A stretch of DNA of 34,254 nt from Candidatus Saccharimonadota bacterium (GTDB lineage: Bacteria > Patescibacteriota > Saccharimonadia > Saccharimonadales > JACDBH01), in assembly GCA_028289135.1 (NCBI GenBank), contig JAQGGW010000002.1:1-34254 (forward strand). Direction: 5' to 3'. Under the pieces are notes generated by a model. It saw only the letters and a list, made by a program, of their open reading frames with translations, did not search any database and was not told where the DNA came from. The position numbers and the translations under genes were made by a program. Shown here one piece after another: positions 1,640 through 24,250 of this stretch (its first letter is position 1; every line of letters begins with the position of its first letter).

Positions 1640-2128
1640 TTAGGCTGAGATGTCGGCAATACGTGGTTCGGCTAGGTTTTTGTAGTCGGCCGATGTCATG
1701 CCGATAGAATAATTGCGTCCAGCATTGAAAATAATTTTCTCATGGTCCATAAGTTTTTCATCGCATACGACTTCAATGCTGAACAGGTTGCCAAAAGGTG
1801 GTACGCCGCCAGGTTTAACACCGTCTGTAACGTTATTTACCTCTTCTTCGGTTGCAAAACGGATGTCATTTGAATGGAGCAGGGTTTTTACTTTGGAGCT
1901 ATCAAATTTTTGATCGCCAGGCATGACTAGCATTACAAATTTTTTCCCAACACCTGAGACTTTGACACGCAATATAATGGCCTTAGCGCCTTGCTGCAAT
2001 GTGTAATTTGGCCGAATTTTGGCAGCTTCCTCACTCGTGCGCACCGGTTCGTGTTCGAATGTTTCGAACCAGCAGCCATTTTTGGTTAGTAAATCCGTAA
2101 TTTTACTTGCGATAGGATGTTCACTCAT
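1640..2128 (-). CDS. YbaK/EbsC/ProX-family aminoacyl-tRNA deacylase
   Basis: Motifs HEPVRTSEEAA, AKAII, RFATEEEV, GVKPGGVPPFG and IFNAG. Confidence 0.9.
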   Translation of the reverse strand: MSEHPIASKITDLLTKNGCWFETFEHEPVRTSEEAAKIRPNYTLQQGAKAIILRVKVSGVGKKFVMLVMPGDQKFDSSKVKTLLHSNDIRFATEEEVNNVTDGVKPGGVPPFGNLFSIEVVCDEKLMDHEKIIFNAGRNYSIGMTSADYKNLAEPRIADISA

Positions 2129-2187
2129 AAACTAATAATAACAGAGAGGTTTGCATAAATGAGCGCAGATTTTGCTATAGTGGCAAT

Positions 2188-2769
2188 ATGCGTTCCGCTT
2201 TGCCAATCGTTAGCGCCATACTGGCATTAATAGCACCGGTTATCTATTGCCGGGCAATTTTGCGCGGTGATGCCAAACCCCATCGCACAACCCGTTTTGT
2301 TTTGCTTCTCATTACAATTTTGACCTTTGCTTCGCTATTGGCCCAGCACAACCACCAAGCCATTTGGCTTGCTAGCGCGTCGGCTATCCAGGCGGTATTC
2401 ATTTTTGCACTTAGCATTAAACACGGCATGGGCGGACGGGATAAATCGGATATTATTTGCCTTGTCATCGCGTTGGCCGGGATGATTTTATGGCGGATTA
2501 CAAAGCAGCCAGTGTTGGCACTTTACTTTGCAATTTTGGCCGATTTTACAGGGATGATACCCGCACTCATCAAAACCTACCGCAAACCCGAAACCGAAAT
2601 TTGGAGCTATTTTGGGATAGACGTTATCGCAGGGATGTTAACACTGTTAGCCTCCAAAGAATGGACCGTCAAAGCTGTTTTGTACGGGCTTTACATAATG
2701 GTAATCAACATCTGTATGGTGAGCATTATTTTATACGGACAACGAAAGCAAAAAGCTACCAGAGCGTAA
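2188..2769 (+). CDS. Polytopic membrane protein (PQ-loop-like duplicated repeat)
   Basis: About 6-7 hydrophobic helices with repeated P-containing loops (KPHRTT; IPALIKTYRKPETE). Confidence 0.7.
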   Translation: MRSALPIVSAILALIAPVIYCRAILRGDAKPHRTTRFVLLLITILTFASLLAQHNHQAIWLASASAIQAVFIFALSIKHGMGGRDKSDIICLVIALAGMILWRITKQPVLALYFAILADFTGMIPALIKTYRKPETEIWSYFGIDVIAGMLTLLASKEWTVKAVLYGLYIMVINICMVSIILYGQRKQKATRA

Positions 2770-2778
2770 GTGTTTTAC

Positions 2779-2807
2779 TTGCAAAAACAGGGGTAACTTG
2801 CTAAAAT
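2779..2807 (+). promoter_or_regulatory. Sigma70-type promoter for tRNA-Lys
   Basis: TTGCAA-17 nt-TAAAAT with an extended TG. Confidence 0.6.
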
Positions 2808-2835
2808 AGTGCTTTGTAACATGCCGCTACAGCGC

Positions 2836-2912
2836 GGGTCAGTAGCTCAGCTGGTTAGAGCGTCTGCCTCTTAAGCAGAATGTCGAGGGTTCAAGTCCCT
2901 CCTGACCCTCCA
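2836..2912 (+). tRNA. tRNA-Lys (CTT)
   Basis: Acceptor stem GGGTCAG/CTGACCC, D-arm TAGCTCAGCTGGTTAGAGC, anticodon arm TCTGC-CTCTTAA-GCAGA, T-loop GTTCAAGTC, encoded CCA. Confidence 0.97.
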
Positions 2913-2951
2913 ACTAAAAAGACTTGCCGAAAGGTAAGTCTTTTTAGTTGG
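2910..2951 (+). terminator. Intrinsic terminator hairpin after tRNA-Lys
   Basis: CCAACTAAAAAGACTTGCC-GAAA-GGTAAGTCTTTTTAGTTGG: 19-bp stem with one G-U pair and A/T tracts. Confidence 0.85.
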
Positions 2952-2965
2952 CCAGGAGTTCAGGC

Positions 2966-3093
2966 AGGGACTTGAACGGGTATGTCCAGTGGACATACCC
3001 CGCCCTTGGCCTCAAAAACATGTTTTTGAGGTGGCTTATAGCAATTTTAATTTTAAATTGCGGAGCCAGGTCAAGTCCCTCTCGCTCCCATCC
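2966..3093. repeat. Multi-hairpin element bounded by inverted copies of the tRNA T-arm sequence
   Basis: AGGGACTTGA (2966-2975) and TCAAGTCCCT (3071-3080) are perfect inverted repeats. Internal hairpins lie at 2978-3000, 3010-3031 and 3032-3068. Confidence 0.7.
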
Positions 3094-3138
3094 ATAAAAA
3101 ATCTTCAAAAAGTTTTATTTTGCTACAATAACCTAGAA

Positions 3139-3753
3139 ATGAACAAGACAACTCCTAAAAGAATAATCGCGTTCCTTATTATCCTGTTAGTAATTTACAT
3201 ATTAACCGGGCCAATGATTAGTAAAGCCATGGCAACTTCACATCTCAAGCAAGTTTCCAACCGGGAGATGCAGCCACTGCTGGAACCAATAAATGCGCTC
3301 ATGCAGGGAGCGGAACCCCGGAGAGTATTAGAATGTGGCGAGAAATCGCATACCCACATTAAAACAAACCTCTTCTGCCAAGATGTAAACTTTTATAAAT
3401 ATAACCCCGAAGCTCTTCCTGATTCATCGCGTTCGAGGATAGCCAGCGAAGCTGCTTACTTGGATAAAATACTGGCTCAAAATGGCTGGACGATTGACCG
3501 CCCGCAGGACGAGATTAAGACTATAGAAGGGAGCATACCGACAACCGCTCTTCAGCGTTTTTATGGCGGAGGTCAAGTTCCATTCCATAAAAATATCGGT
3601 GCTATAAGTTGCAATCTAGAAATTTGGTTTGGCGGTCCAACGGACGGAATTTCACCAGGCGCGGTAAATGTTAATAGATTTTCATGCCAACAGCACATCT
3701 CATATCCTATGCTTCACATTTCAAATCATATCAATCGAAGCTTTGGCGGCTGA
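3139..3753 (+). CDS. Hypothetical membrane-anchored/secreted Cys-containing protein
   Basis: ORF 2989..3753. The likely start is ATG 3139 (MNKTTPKRIIAFLIILLVIYIL), after TGCTACAAT at 3121-3129. It has an N-terminal signal anchor and four Cys. Confidence 0.65.
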   Translation: MNKTTPKRIIAFLIILLVIYILTGPMISKAMATSHLKQVSNREMQPLLEPINALMQGAEPRRVLECGEKSHTHIKTNLFCQDVNFYKYNPEALPDSSRSRIASEAAYLDKILAQNGWTIDRPQDEIKTIEGSIPTTALQRFYGGGQVPFHKNIGAISCNLEIWFGGPTDGISPGAVNVNRFSCQQHISYPMLHISNHINRSFGG

Positions 3754-20204: not shown

Positions 20205-20279
20205 GGTCCCATCGTCTATCGGTTAGGACACTGGGTTTTCATCCCAGCAAGAGGAGTTCGACTCTCCTTGGGATCACCA
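20205..20279 (+). tRNA. tRNA-Glu (TTC)
   Basis: Acceptor GGTCCCA/TGGGATC, anticodon arm CTGGG-TTTTCAT-CCCAG, T-arm AGGAG-TTCGACT-CTCCT, encoded CCA. Confidence 0.97.
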
Positions 20280-21774
20280 TCGTATTCGAATCAGGCACTT
20301 CGGTGCCTGTTTTCATGTTCGCTAAGGTGTAAAGTGTGCTTAATTTGGGCGTTCGAAATTTATTTGTAGTGAGGTCGTATTCTAGGCCTTCTGGAAACAC
20401 CAGGCGTTGGTAGATGATTTGATGTTCTATCGAGGCGTTGCTCCATATTCTTGGGGCGTTCGACATAAAACGCATAGCGTAGTCGATTGCATCAGTTTTT
20501 AGTTCTGACAAGGACCCGATACTCGCAAGGTCTTGCTGTATAGTGTCGGACTCATTTTTTATCTTCGCAACGAGGTCTTTCTTTTCTTCTAGAGAAATAT
20601 CGCCCGAAACAAATGCCTCTACCGTTTTGTTTCTTCTCTCTGTGAGCTGTTCTAAGACCTTATGGAGCTTCTTCTGCTTATTACCTAGGGTTTGTGTTTC
20701 GTCACGCCAGACACGTACAATTATCTCTTTTAGGAACTTCTCCACGTCTGGGTCAGGAGTTAGTGAGGCAAGTAGGTGTAGGAATTGTTCGTGAAGCTCA
20801 CCTGACTGCACAGAGGGGACATGACATCTAGCACAGTGGTAGCGTGGCGAACGCTTGCCTGAGCCACCAACTGGACTGCTACCTGTTAGAGGTTTATTAC
20901 ACTTCGCACACAGCATAAAGCGTCTCAGAGGGAATTCAGGGTTATTCTTCTTATATGTAGCGGCAGAGTTCTTGTTGGTTCTCAGAAGCTCTTGATTACG
21001 GTGATAGACCGCAGGGGTAATGATGCCATCGAATTTTGAGGATACGAGCTGATCCTCTGTGTGACGGTTCTGTTCAAGCCCTGCATAGATAGGGTTACGC
21101 AACATCTTACTGAGAGCCTGTATTTGCATCGGCTTACCTTGAGCAGACTTTAACCCTATGCTCTCGCACATCTTAATTAAGCCAGCTATCGTATACGTAC
21201 CCGTTGTGTATGCTTCGAGGACAGAGGCCACCTTATCGGCGACCCCCTCTATTGGTGCAAGTACAGACTTATCTAGCAGGTCTCTCACGTTTTTAAGACC
21301 ATGAGGTGCTTTGCTCATGCGATAGCCCTCTTTAGCATGGACTTTCATGTTATCTTTTACACGAACAGATTTAACCTTATTGTCGTGCTGAGCAAGTACA
21401 GCCTCTATATTCTGTATAAGCTCCTCATTAACACTATCTTCTAGGCTTGAGTTGATGTTCTTGTACTCAATTCCCAGTTTTGATAGAAGAGTACGTAGTG
21501 CAAAGAAGTCTGTGGCGTTGCGAGTGAGACGATCCGTCTGGTACGTAATGAGATAGTGAATGCGACCCTTGTTTGCCTCAAGGTACGCTAACATCTCTTT
21601 CATAGCAGGACGGTCTAAGGTTTTGGCTGATACACCGTCATCATGGTAGATTTTCTCGACCAGTACATTGTTGCGTGATGCCCATTCTTGGCACATCATT
21701 TGTTGCGTTTCAAGACTCGCTCCCTCTACCTGCTTGGTAGTTGACACACGGAGATAAATGACTGCTTTTTTCAT
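20239..21774 (-). CDS. Large serine recombinase (integrase)
   Basis: YLRVST (catalytic Ser), DDGVSAKTLDRPAM, DRLTRN, recombinase domain LRNPIYAG, Zn ribbon CAKC...YHCARC, and a coiled coil. The 3' end runs antisense into tRNA-Glu. Confidence 0.95.
   Translation of the reverse strand: MKKAVIYLRVSTTKQVEGASLETQQMMCQEWASRNNVLVEKIYHDDGVSAKTLDRPAMKEMLAYLEANKGRIHYLITYQTDRLTRNATDFFALRTLLSKLGIEYKNINSSLEDSVNEELIQNIEAVLAQHDNKVKSVRVKDNMKVHAKEGYRMSKAPHGLKNVRDLLDKSVLAPIEGVADKVASVLEAYTTGTYTIAGLIKMCESIGLKSAQGKPMQIQALSKMLRNPIYAGLEQNRHTEDQLVSSKFDGIITPAVYHRNQELLRTNKNSAATYKKNNPEFPLRRFMLCAKCNKPLTGSSPVGGSGKRSPRYHCARCHVPSVQSGELHEQFLHLLASLTPDPDVEKFLKEIIVRVWRDETQTLGNKQKKLHKVLEQLTERRNKTVEAFVSGDISLEEKKDLVAKIKNESDTIQQDLASIGSLSELKTDAIDYAMRFMSNAPRIWSNASIEHQIIYQRLVFPEGLEYDLTTNKFRTPKLSTLYTLANMKTGTEVPDSNTMVIPRRVELLLLG
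20292..20313 (+). terminator. Element-supplied terminator for tRNA-Glu, embedded antisense in the integrase gene
   Basis: CAGGCAC-TTCG-GTGCCTG-TTTT, 12 nt after the CCA. Confidence 0.7.
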
Positions 21775-22022
21775 TGTGTGGTTGCCTCGGTATTGCTTAT
21801 AGTAACATTATTTTTAATATTTTTCGAACTAATATATGTACGAACTGAAATTCTCACCACTGTTTCAGTGGCTTGTATCAACGCTTTTAATTCTTCGTTG
21901 GTTAGGTTTTTTGCTTTTTGTCCTAGGAGCTTACGGGCTTCTTTGACTGATATGACCAGTTGGCCACTGATATTATTGTGTGGTGCATAGTGCTGTGCCA
22001 CTTTGGTTCTCTCTTGAACCAT
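21771..22022 (-). CDS. Small basic protein coupled to the integrase (candidate directionality factor/regulator)
   Basis: ATGA overlap with the integrase start; helical ISVKEARKLLG...LTNEEL pattern. Confidence 0.65.
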   Translation of the reverse strand: MVQERTKVAQHYAPHNNISGQLVISVKEARKLLGQKAKNLTNEELKALIQATETVVRISVRTYISSKNIKNNVTISNTEATTQ

Positions 22023-22158
22023 GAGAACGACTTATTGCCGAACCCCTACCGAGAATGCCGTAGACCTGTGCGTGACCTGTAATCAAAAGAACGTTGCAGG
22101 TCAGTCGGCTTTAAGTCTACTACTTAAAACAAACTGGTTATGCAACGTTCCACCTTTA

Positions 22159-22187
22159 ATTATACGTAAGCATAATGAATTTGTCAA
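22159..22187 (-). promoter_or_regulatory. Consensus sigma70 promoter for the small ORF + integrase operon
   Basis: The minus strand reads TTGACA-17 nt-TATAAT exactly. Confidence 0.8.
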
Positions 22188-22257
22188 GTATATTTTATGG
22201 TTGTGCTAATTTTGTATAATGAGAACAGAGGTAACGCCGAAAAACAAAGGAGTTTAT

Positions 22258-22491
22258 ATGGAAATCAAAAAAGCTATCGGCAGACCGCCTAAGGTCAATT
22301 ATCGAGTCATCATAAAATTAGCGGATTCAATTCAGCACAACTCAACAATTACTGAAGCCTGTCGCTATGCAGGAATAAGCCGTGATACCTACTACCATTA
22401 CATGAATAACGAAACAGTGTTCGCCGAGAAAATGACCACCGCAAAAGACAATCAGAATAGATTGGTCATGAGTTTTCTGACGGTTTATTGA
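22258..22491 (+). CDS. Small HTH protein resembling phage terminase small-subunit N-terminal domains
   Basis: GRPPK arm followed by TITEACRYAGISRDTYYHY HTH. An AAGGAG SD favours ATG 22258 over 22219. Confidence 0.7.
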   Translation: MEIKKAIGRPPKVNYRVIIKLADSIQHNSTITEACRYAGISRDTYYHYMNNETVFAEKMTTAKDNQNRLVMSFLTVY

Positions 22492-22634
22492 AAAACACGC
22501 TGTTTTGTTAGCAGTTTTTAAGAAAAGTAGTGTCAGTCAATACAGTAGGAGCTAAGTCTAAGTAAAGGCCAAACACACCAAAGTGGCAGAAGAGGTTACA
22601 ACTCTCTGTTTTATTTTTAAGGTATTATAAGATA

Positions 22635-23435
22635 ATGAAATTTGGCACGAGCTTTGGTACACACAAGTTAGTTGAGAGGTATCCTTCTTTAAATGAAGCA
22701 ACTGTTGGCGCAACTTTAAAAATATCTCTCAAGCTATTACTGGAAGGTAAGCTATGGGACCAGGTTGGACGACAACGGGTTCTCACTAAGGGATTTGAAC
22801 ACGGTATCGAACAGATAGATTTTGGTAAGGATAAAGCGATAGTACAAGTAGGTGCTAATGATGGGATGCATAGCGACCCTCTTCGTCCGATTCTTGCCAA
22901 ACAAAATATGAAAGCAGTGCTTGTGGAACCTATAACACTTGCTTTTGAGGCACTATCTCGACTTTATGAAAACAGGCCTGCCACGTATTTAATGAATAAT
23001 GCGATTGCTGCTCAGAGTGGTCATCTGACACTGTACTCACCCAGAATTAAGGGTCGGGAGTTGCAATCTACTTTATGGGCGTGTAAATCAAAAGAACAAG
23101 TTATTCGCGAAATCAAAAGAAATGTAGGCAAGGAGGCTCTAGGAAGTGCAGAAATATCGGAGATGCAGGTAGAGGCTCAGACTGCTGCTCAGCTTTGCAA
23201 GGATTGTGATTTGGATCCGAAGAATATAGCCGTACTTGTAGTAGACACGGAAGGTCAGGATGCTGAAATTGTGGGCTCCTTCTTGGATGCAGGAGCATCA
23301 CCTGAGGTTATATACTATGAGCAGTTACACGTACCACCACACGACGCGACAGTCGTTAAAGAAAGACTAAGTGGTCTTGGGTATAGTTTAGACGAAACCC
23401 ACAAGGATGTACTTGCAAGGCTAGTGCGTAACTAA
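22635..23435 (+). CDS. FkbM-family SAM-dependent methyltransferase (element cargo)
   Basis: Motifs VQVGANDG, VLVEP, NNAI, LVVDTEGQDAEI and PEVIYYE. Confidence 0.88.
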   Translation: MKFGTSFGTHKLVERYPSLNEATVGATLKISLKLLLEGKLWDQVGRQRVLTKGFEHGIEQIDFGKDKAIVQVGANDGMHSDPLRPILAKQNMKAVLVEPITLAFEALSRLYENRPATYLMNNAIAAQSGHLTLYSPRIKGRELQSTLWACKSKEQVIREIKRNVGKEALGSAEISEMQVEAQTAAQLCKDCDLDPKNIAVLVVDTEGQDAEIVGSFLDAGASPEVIYYEQLHVPPHDATVVKERLSGLGYSLDETHKDVLARLVRN

Positions 23436-23516
23436 GCCCTTTAAATCATACTTTATAAGGATATAACTTCTTCTACTGTGGTAGCCCATATAGTACTAAG
23501 TTAATAGTGTTCTACT

Positions 23517-23612
23517 CTAAGCTAGAATGTACTCTGTCGCTGTTATTGCTCTCATGTAGCTATATACTTCTAGTAGTTCAGTACAGATTGCGTTCAATTT
23601 CGACTTCACATA
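23517..23612 (-). other. Orphan 31-codon frame that would become the integrase C-terminus after excision
   Basis: In the integrase register across the att core, it reads YVKSKLNAICTELLEVYSYMRAITATEYILA-TAG. Confidence 0.6.
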
Positions 23613-23632
23613 GATCACCACGTTAGAATCAA

Positions 23633-23661
23633 TAAAAACCCTGCACTATGCGGGGTTTTTA
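23633..23661 (+). terminator. Intrinsic terminator (probably the displaced native tRNA-Glu terminator; bidirectional)
   Basis: TAAAAACCCTGCA-CTA-TGCGGGGTTTTTA, 12 nt after the right att core. Confidence 0.8.
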
Positions 23662-23677
23662 CATTTTTAAGACTTTG

Positions 23678-24250
23678 TTAAAGCGTCAGATTATTTTTAC
23701 GGAAATTATATTGCATTGATGTGTAGAAACACGCGATAAACAAAAGCTCCAAAAGCGGCGCGTTAAAATACCAAGATGTGGACTTTATGAGGACTGCAAT
23801 TATTAGAACAATGCACGCAAGTGACGCCACGGCGGCTAATAAAGTGTTTATGGGCGACCTTTTGCGGAGGCTTATAAAAATTACGGCAATGCTTGAACTT
23901 AAAAATAGGCCTAAGCTAAGGAACGCGTGGATGAAAAAAATTACTTTTCCTTCGTGAAAGGGTAACAGAAACAGCAATACCGCACTGAGGCCCGCCACTT
24001 GTATGCATCGTTTTAAGACTCCATAGCTTTGTTTTATATTTTGCGCGACAAGAAGTAGGAAAATGCCGCTCAAAACACTACCTGCTATGTGTATTCCAGC
24101 CGTTTCGGGGTAGCGCGAATAGCGGCTGAGGGCACTGTCTGGGATGCGCAGTACTGACGGTTTTATCATCATCTCAAGAATCAATGCACTCCAAGTAATG
24201 GCCATAGCGATATTAAGTAATTTTAACGTGGAGATTCTTTGGAGCTTCAT
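23678..24250 (-). CDS. Hypothetical polytopic membrane protein (DUF998-like)
   Basis: About 6 TM helices; ALSRYS motif and a His in FIHAFLS. Confidence 0.65.
   Translation of the reverse strand: MKLQRISTLKLLNIAMAITWSALILEMMIKPSVLRIPDSALSRYSRYPETAGIHIAGSVLSGIFLLLVAQNIKQSYGVLKRCIQVAGLSAVLLFLLPFHEGKVIFFIHAFLSLGLFLSSSIAVIFISLRKRSPINTLLAAVASLACIVLIIAVLIKSTSWYFNAPLLELLFIACFYTSMQYNFRKNNLTL

Follow-up and report, generated by a model that had tools for sequence, protein, structure and literature searches.

What becomes of a recombinase when the DNA site at which it acts lies inside its own gene? The question is raised by a 34,254-nt stretch of DNA (positions 1–34,254 of contig JAQGGW010000002.1, GenBank assembly GCA_028289135.1; hereafter the window) from a Candidatus Saccharimonadota bacterium with a genome of ~1.05 Mb. 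We are very confident that bases 20280–23620 of the window are a 3,341-bp integrative element that was inserted by its own large serine recombinase into the sequence TCACCA of a tRNA-Glu(UUC) gene, and that the attachment site of the element (attP) lies inside the reading frame of this integrase. The original 3′ end of the integrase gene sits at the opposite end of the element.

The integrase gene (20239–21774, minus strand) encodes 511 amino acids (aa) in the integrated state, as judged from the list of open reading frames (ORFs), Pfam, PHROG and a homologue search. By every sequence and fold feature tested, the protein is a large serine recombinase. Pfam finds a Resolvase domain at residues 4–150 (PF00239, E = 1e-25) and a Recombinase domain (PF07508, DNA-binding domain 1) at E = 2e-05 and 25.2 bits, with a cut-off of 21.1; the zinc ribbon (PF13408, E = 0.0023) scores 18.7 bits, under its cut-off of 25.3. 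The match to PHROG 95, an integrase family, has an E-value of 5.4e-68. Residues R9, V10, S11 and T12 of the resolvase-type catalytic domain, which includes the nucleophilic serine, are invariant in 24 family members, and the zinc-ribbon cysteines C289, C292, C314 and C317 (DNA-binding domain 2) are likewise invariant. The closest named records are metagenome-assembled genomes of Saccharibacteria and Patescibacteria; no relative was found among the viral contigs of IMG/VR.

The integrase ORF overlaps the 3′ part of the tRNA-Glu gene by 41 nt in antisense orientation. A first-pass annotation of this DNA had placed the att core within the recombinase frame, with coordinates that prove correct to the base: the codons ATG-GTG-ATC span 20272–20280, and the protein ends in NTMVIPRRVELLLLG followed by the stop codon. 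It had also recognized that the integrated protein borrows its C-terminus from the tRNA gene, and the last ten codons (20242–20271, PRRVELLLLG) are indeed antisense tRNA, while the stop codon (TGA, 20239–20241) is the reverse complement of a TCA in the anticodon loop. Codons 1–499 of the integrase, together with the first base of codon 500, belong to the element itself.

The target of integration, tRNA-Glu(UUC), is intact (20205–20279, plus strand, ARAGORN; the attB′ side). The tRNA-Glu of a related genome, G013, is identical to it and uninterrupted, and represents an empty site because host sequence adjoins it directly. The final six tRNA bases, TCACCA (20274–20279), form the attL core, within which the crossover falls; a second TCACCA (23615–23620) forms the attR core and the right end of the element. 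In the window both copies belong to an 8-bp repeat, GATCACCA (20272–20279 and 23613–23620), which the first-pass annotation took to be the att core. Its positions were exact, but across the family the core is the 6-bp TCACCA, and the 8 bp of the window arise from one extra matching position at which 22 of 24 relatives carry an A. On its own, the 8-bp repeat is weak evidence of a boundary: the window holds three copies against 0.54 expected, 3 of 100 shuffles reach three, and the third copy is within an unrelated gene.

The boundary is real not because of this repeat but because related elements share the far junction. TGGTGA, the reverse complement of the last six tRNA bases, is present there in 24/24 related elements and is followed by an in-frame tail. 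The base preceding GGTGA is T in all 24, and the next bases are AC in 22, TC in the window and GC in L019. TGGTGA is all that the junctions of the 24 elements have in common; the host B arm is unconserved, and no relationship is seen between genomes on the host side of the far junction, where many relatives have a terminator-like hairpin. Short contigs from two other metagenome runs, X2 and X3, that match the window from 23505 or 23509 to 23620 diverge on both sides, and their loose ends fall exactly at 23620. These ends mark the right boundary independently and show that the tail module moves with different cargo. The right boundary originally drawn for the window is therefore the junction found in relatives and the point at which similarity stops in X2 and X3. 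In 7 of 11 loci from relatives (L005–L015), tRNA-Glu(UUC) lies ~50–1000 bp upstream of the pyruvate kinase gene (pyk), as compared with 4 kb in the window; one of the four loci lacking it there, L015, comes from the unpublished genome G003, which supports nothing else.

At the far junction, the minus-strand frame 23517–23621 continues the integrase register: after V-I, it translates into a 31-residue tail. The stretch 23517–23612 (minus strand, 31 codons and a stop) is the detached 3′ end of the integrase gene and encodes the C-terminal helix of the enzyme in the free form. That this stretch encodes an alternative tail had been proposed from the window alone, and the proposal is borne out by homologous in-frame tails in 24 relatives and by a homologue, P0019, in which the tail is contiguous with the integrase. 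The tails were located by scanning the DNA left of each integrase for a GGTGA from which a frame stays open in the integrase register. When the far end had to match 7 or more bases of the tRNA end in the same element, few boundaries emerged, because the shared core is only 6 bp. Among 44 rows with a tRNA-reading integrase, 26 have a homologous tail, or 24 after removal of two duplicates, located 3.3–7.2 kb from the tRNA end; 14 of the 18 rows that yielded none have less than 3.1 kb of flanking sequence.

The first-pass annotation had suggested rebuilding the homologous tails and comparing them at the protein level, and the outcome is positive. In 24/24 elements the tail frame stays open over 32 codons or more, whereas the other five frames contain stops in 18–24 of the 24. 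The ratio of nonsynonymous to synonymous divergence (dN/dS; Nei-Gojobori with Jukes-Cantor correction, summed over pairs) is 0.42 for all 24 tails and 0.12 for the seven closest, in which the C-terminal domain of the integrase gives 0.06. Codons 10–32, which lie beyond a typical attP half-site, give 0.43 and 0.13, while the same DNA read in two shifted control frames gives 1.10 and 0.99. The DNA flanking the tail is unrelated on both sides (26–31% ungapped identity). By these substitution patterns, the tail is under purifying selection at the protein level across a family that is 42–89% identical. Since the tail belongs to no complete gene when the element is integrated, this selection means that it must be translated from the joined form often enough to persist; the tail must matter, and regular passage through a free form is implied.

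Conservation is concentrated in the helix (positions 6–23) and not at the C-terminal end: N9 and I11 are kept in 24/24 tails, E14 in 23, Y19 in 21 and R23 in 19. An I-P pair at positions 31–32 is kept in 20/24 and 18/24, respectively, and 13 of the 24 tails extend 2–23 residues past it with unrelated sequence, making the extreme end the least conserved part. The first ~8 tail codons overlap the expected attP half-site and include a conserved TCGAA block that resembles a tRNA T-loop.

Integrases in which the two halves are joined exist in other assemblies. A search of a protein collection with the integrase returned 214 matches. Among the best 61 of these, 25 are exactly 511 aa long and end in variants of V[IT][PS]R[RG][IV]E[LP]xLPG, which a check by hand against the tRNAs of relatives identified as antisense tRNA-Glu of different hosts. 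Ten others of the 61 (P0009, P0019, P0028, P0030, P0033, P0038, P0042, P0043, P0052 and P0059) run past the conserved valine into a different, longer and contiguous tail. Homology to the detached frame of the window is clear for the tail of P0019 (532 aa), and the joined protein therefore occurs as a contiguous gene elsewhere. Contiguous tails are further present in L095 (552 aa), L037 and L144.

The design is widespread. We fetched 150 loci, some of which are the same genome from two collections, so that counts refer to rows and not to independent elements. A full integrase ORF is present in 118, of which 89 extend into a tRNA gene in antisense (66 Glu, 12 Arg, 6 Leu, 2 Met, 2 Ala and 1 Lys); nine of the remainder run off the contig and 20 have no tRNA called, although several of the 20 end in tRNA-like residues. 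Integrases only ~28–30% identical to that of the window still read into a tRNA. In five loci (L026, L111, L116, L141 and L142), the target is a tRNA-Glu(CUC) of 76–77 nt; there the integrase misses the anticodon-loop stop and runs 3–8 codons further (...FEPAIFWMRT...), so it is the host tRNA that sets the length of the junk tail.

To describe the joined protein, we used an AlphaFold2 model of P0019 (57-row alignment, mean pLDDT 88.4). Residues 1–485 superimpose on the whole SPbeta integrase with Z = 17.9 and rmsd 12.7 over 453 aligned residues, and the model aligns with Bxb1 with Z = 15.8 and rmsd 13.4 over 374; Foldseek E-values go down to 4e-20. Two long helices (342–389 and 395–423) correspond to the coiled-coil inserted in the zinc ribbon. 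The last canonical helix (480–486) is followed by a linker (487–503, pLDDT ~49) and by the tail helix (504–528, pLDDT ~60–81). Because the crossover falls in the linker, integration removes exactly the extra helix.

The linker codons serve more than the protein. Directly after the tRNA and within the integrase codons, a GC-rich hairpin (20292–20309) followed by TTTT makes up a predicted replacement intrinsic terminator for tRNA-Glu that is supplied by the element (20292–20315, plus strand). The tRNA's original terminator, by terminator prediction, is at 23633–23661 (plus strand) in the host B arm, displaced 3.3 kb by the insertion. A linker hairpin with a T-run is found in 23 of 24 relatives, with energies from −11.6 to −19.5 kcal/mol, and is weak in L036 (−5.0). 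The widespread integrase motif M-K-K-D-P (MKKDPS in most relatives) corresponds to the reverse complement of the stem end plus U-tract. The linker stretch thus appears to be coding sequence, attP P arm and terminator at once. In the last 15 integrase codons, the proportion of synonymous differences (pS) is 0.38, as compared with 0.67 further upstream, and this low synonymous divergence fits a DNA-level constraint from the attP P arm and the terminator.

Counted from the tRNA, the element carries the integrase, an 83-aa ORF, a promoter-like site, a divergent helix-turn-helix (HTH) gene, an FkbM methyltransferase gene, the detached tail and the core. The 83-aa ORF (21771–22022, minus strand) overlaps the integrase start and encodes a conserved partner of the integrase: a homologue lies directly upstream of the integrase gene in 25/25 loci tested. 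In the alignment, its core is I-S-V-K-E-A-R-K-L-L-G, followed by two helices' worth of conserved residues; it has no Pfam or PHROG match. It is a candidate directionality factor or regulator and, always co-transcribed with the integrase, would be the likeliest partner in excision. Upstream of both genes is a sigma-70-type promoter-like site (22159–22187, minus strand; TTGACA-17-TATAAT), assigned by its consensus match only. This 12/12 match is divergent from the HTH gene and unusually strong-looking for an integrase. As the promoter is internal to the element, the integrase should be made in both states, with only its C-terminus changing.

The HTH gene (22219–22491, plus strand) encodes a small protein of the terminase-small-subunit or transposase type with homologues in 9 of 25 related loci; translation probably begins at an ATG at 22259 that follows a ribosome-binding site. 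It is the only HTH gene, and it is intact and away from the junctions; the split gene is the integrase, so this is not a case of attP in a repressor. The FkbM-family methyltransferase (22635–23435, plus strand; Pfam) is cargo that none of the 25 related loci carries.

Taken together, we somewhat favor a scheme in which this architecture yields functionally different isoforms. In the free form, with the ends joined, the gene encodes a ~532-aa protein ending in a ~17-residue flexible linker and the conserved amphipathic helix, with attP located ~32 codons before the natural stop. In the integrated form, the same promoter-driven gene reads from the crossover into the antisense tRNA, adding 10 foreign residues before the anticodon-loop stop. 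Integration converts the ~532-aa protein to one of 511 aa and leaves the tail codons at the far end (23517–23612), while regenerating tRNA-Glu and supplying its terminator.

Whether the isoforms differ in activity, with the tail helix docking back to tune synapsis, directionality or partner binding, we consider an evenly balanced question. The long form would be the integration enzyme and the short form an enzyme with different properties, so that integration would switch enzyme behavior automatically, as reported for IntP/IntX of phage Mx8. In the free form, the tethered helix would occupy or shape the hinge between zinc ribbon and coiled-coil; its loss on integration would alter the action of the coiled-coils or of the co-transcribed 83-aa protein. 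A functional difference is plausible because the swap in Mx8 is reported to change its integrase and because the extreme C-terminus of PhiC31 integrase contacts its recombination directionality factor (RDF). A hint that the tail helix may fold back on the enzyme comes from complex prediction. The P0019 tail (residues 495–532) scores 0.59 against the body (1–492), with 0.01 for the best control, and the tool's verdict is 'weak support'. Contacts coincide between runs to 75% or more, and the partner pLDDT is 66 or higher; the tool returned no interface. A more specific version, in which the tail is a built-in directionality module that locks the free-circle enzyme into attP × attB integration, perhaps by filling the zinc-ribbon/coiled-coil hinge to which directionality factors bind, and in which the constitutively transcribed enzyme, its tail once exchanged for tRNA-derived residues, is open to the 83-aa protein and can excise, is speculative and on balance unlikely. 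If true, it would mean that the state of the DNA rewrites its own enzyme, a toggle that resets itself and needs no regulator from outside, across a large clade of serine integrases that target tRNA genes.

Further evidence for a free form comes from a related element in run X2, whose 3,454-bp contig (depth 50.9) is circularly permuted relative to the element of the window: its first 193 bases match 22081–22274, 1,525 bases are unmatched, and bases 1719–3451 match 20310–22046, so that its ends abut in window coordinates. This contig fits a circle or a tandem copy. At L037, the start of the locus does not continue the run-off tail and holds a tRNA-Glu 3′ fragment instead.

Several observations weigh against the proposed switch or the evidence for it. 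Run X1, the only one that holds the window stretch and probably its source, contains only the integrated form and no joint among its contigs, which cannot show rare forms, and terminal overlap indicative of circularity was found in 0 of 39 whole contigs. Because GGTGA seeded the search, finding it at the far junction does not count as independent evidence. Four integrated elements with 3.9–6.0 kb of flanking sequence (L045, L096, L100 and L115) yielded no tail, and in the wide dN/dS comparisons pS is near saturation. The contiguous long forms partly occur in complex or decayed contexts and not as clean circles: the integrase of L103, on a 165-kb contig, is truncated at its N-terminus and continues directly into a long tail, and the long-tail integrase of L144 stands beside two other large serine recombinase genes, arranged side by side (461 and 565 aa; L144 2713–5725). 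The docking score is weak by the tool's own calibration, in which the mark is reached by 58 of the 80 complexes of solved structure and by 2 of the 110 mismatched pairs; among those that reach it with a score no higher than 0.60 are only 7 of the solved complexes and both of the mismatches.

The alternative that survives best, though we consider it rather unlikely, retains the architecture and dispenses with the switch: the tail would be the normal C-terminus needed for integration, the short isoform a tolerated by-product of no regulatory significance, whether inactive or as capable as the long one, and the overlap with attP a result of compaction. The elements are tiny (3.3–7.2 kb), and the three overlapping functions already carried by the linker codons show how strong compaction is. 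Purifying selection on the tail needs only that it be useful in the free form, and large serine integrases are intrinsically unidirectional without extra devices. Against this explanation, the crossover falls at the same codon across integrases down to ~28% identity and six tRNA types, so the split is ancient and has been maintained. A review (PMC6070905) reports that the properties of the Mx8 integrase change after the equivalent swap, and C-terminal elements of SprA, like that of PhiC31, bear on directionality or RDF contact.

A second alternative was raised by the first-pass annotation, which read the tail end YILA as an ssrA-like degradation tag. The free-form integrase would then be unstable and stabilized by integration, or the reverse. 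Loss of a tag on integration is real in mycobacteriophages (PMC9934374), but there it affects a repressor in phages with tyrosine integrases. A single A ends 8 of the 24 tails and LA ends 3; none ends in AA, the ends are variable, and the conserved residues occupy helix positions 6–23. As the end is the least conserved part of the tail and never AA, we rate this reading as very improbable. That the repeat is due to chance, or that the block at the far end acts purely as a DNA signal (attP P′ arm, promoter or terminator) that is never translated, would accord with the insignificance of the 8-mer alone and with the attP half-site and T-loop-like block in the first ~8 codons, but is almost certainly wrong given a frame open in all 24 elements where other frames hold stops, a dN/dS well under 1 that extends to codons 10–32 while shifted frames give ~1.0, and the same tail fused in frame to integrases in independent assemblies.

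Several side observations concern the tRNA-Glu site and its surroundings. A second tRNA-Glu (CUC) of the same genome (L002 1502–1576, contig C6) has the same TCACCA end and an almost identical T arm, and no element occupies it. Since relatives of the integrase use tRNA-Glu(CUC), it could serve as a second landing site. In the relative G009 (L009), a second copy of the final ~20 tRNA bases, ending in GGGGTCACCA, is located ~170 bp downstream of tRNA-Glu and before pyk, and looks like the scar of a past insertion. Fragments of 12–19 nt from the tRNA-Glu 3′ end lie beyond the far junction of the serine-integrase elements in L024 (near 4103), L030 (near 2163) and L037 (1–60), which suggests stacked or older insertions at the same tRNA, possibly of another kind of element. 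The stretch 6160–11844 of L103 comprises the truncated integrase and its tail, a PLD-like nuclease gene, other cargo and an 86-aa ORF that reads into an antisense tRNA-Glu; L103/L104 looks like a decayed tandem array of two elements ending at another tRNA-Glu. L095 has the same order of tail and PLD-like gene.

Between the right end of the element and pyruvate kinase, the window contains a gene for a DUF998 membrane protein (23678–24250, minus strand), of which the 11 relatives' loci hold no homologue. In the seven of these loci that have tRNA-Glu there, the tRNA is the upstream neighbor of pyk. The DUF998 gene may be an older insertion or a lineage-specific gene. An element reaching over it was considered and is ruled out by the position of both the family boundary and the displaced terminator, within 23620–23661.

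For inserting DNA one way, genome engineering relies mainly on serine integrases, and the control of their direction is a live structural question in cryo-EM papers of 2025–2026. The family offers a natural experiment: from one gene come two isoforms whose only difference is a tethered C-terminal helix, and the state of the DNA chooses between them. The element repairs what it displaces by restoring the tRNA 3′ end and by hiding a new terminator in integrase codons. For annotation, the recurrent '511-aa' recombinases ending in ...IE[LP]xLPG are junction products, and the orphan frames of 31 codons found where islands end are pieces detached from a gene's end and not genes themselves. Serine integrases do target tRNA gene ends, and they do so widely in Patescibacteria. 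An Islander paper of 2014 holds that serine integrases are not known to target tRNA genes, and lists the Mx8 and SSV integrases as extending across attP. The main text of a large survey of large serine recombinases (PMC10083194) contains no occurrence of 'tRNA'. In a tycheposon preprint serine recombinases are counted, with no mention of attP or C-terminal. A published serine integrase that spans its own attP was not found in the literature searched, which lay outside subscription journals and supplements, including the att tables of that survey.

How does this system compare with those already described? The precedents invoked by the first-pass annotation are real, but all are tyrosine-recombinase systems. 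The closest likeness is to Mx8 IntP/IntX, where attP is within the integrase gene and the recombinant gene formed on integration has acquired a new 3′ end; according to the review (PMC6070905), the prophage form is altered and not inactivated. Mx8 Int, however, is a tyrosine recombinase, whereas the enzyme described here is a serine recombinase with another fold, mechanism and directionality logic (coiled-coil and RDF). The integrase of the window works like the Mx8 IntP type without being a member of that group. In SSV1-type archaeal integrases, the gene is interrupted by integration into a tRNA gene and split in two parts. The likeness, an integrase gene that spans attP, is looser; the SSV1 enzyme is again a tyrosine recombinase, and the integrase here acquires a short replacement tail whose in-frame stop the tRNA provides. 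Immunity systems of the BPs/Brujita type share an attP inside a gene whose product is shortened and changed in behavior by integration (PMC9934374), but theirs is a split repressor that loses an ssrA-like -AA tag in phages with a tyrosine recombinase, and none of these features is present here.

By family, the integrase belongs with SPbeta SprA, Bxb1, PhiC31 and LI/A118, with which it shares the catalytic domain, recombinase domain, zinc ribbon and coiled-coil; the short core at its two junctions is consistent with att sites of their kind. In contrast, in the papers searched their attP lies outside the gene and no change of their own sequence is described. The tail helix of the present family lies beyond the part that aligns with solved serine integrases (residues 1–485 to 487 of the P0019 model), and the target of integration, unlike that of canonical serine integrases, is the 3′ end of a tRNA gene. 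Three features thus set the integrase apart from the serine integrases described so far: its gene contains attP, its extra helix can be detached, and it targets the 3′ end of a tRNA gene.

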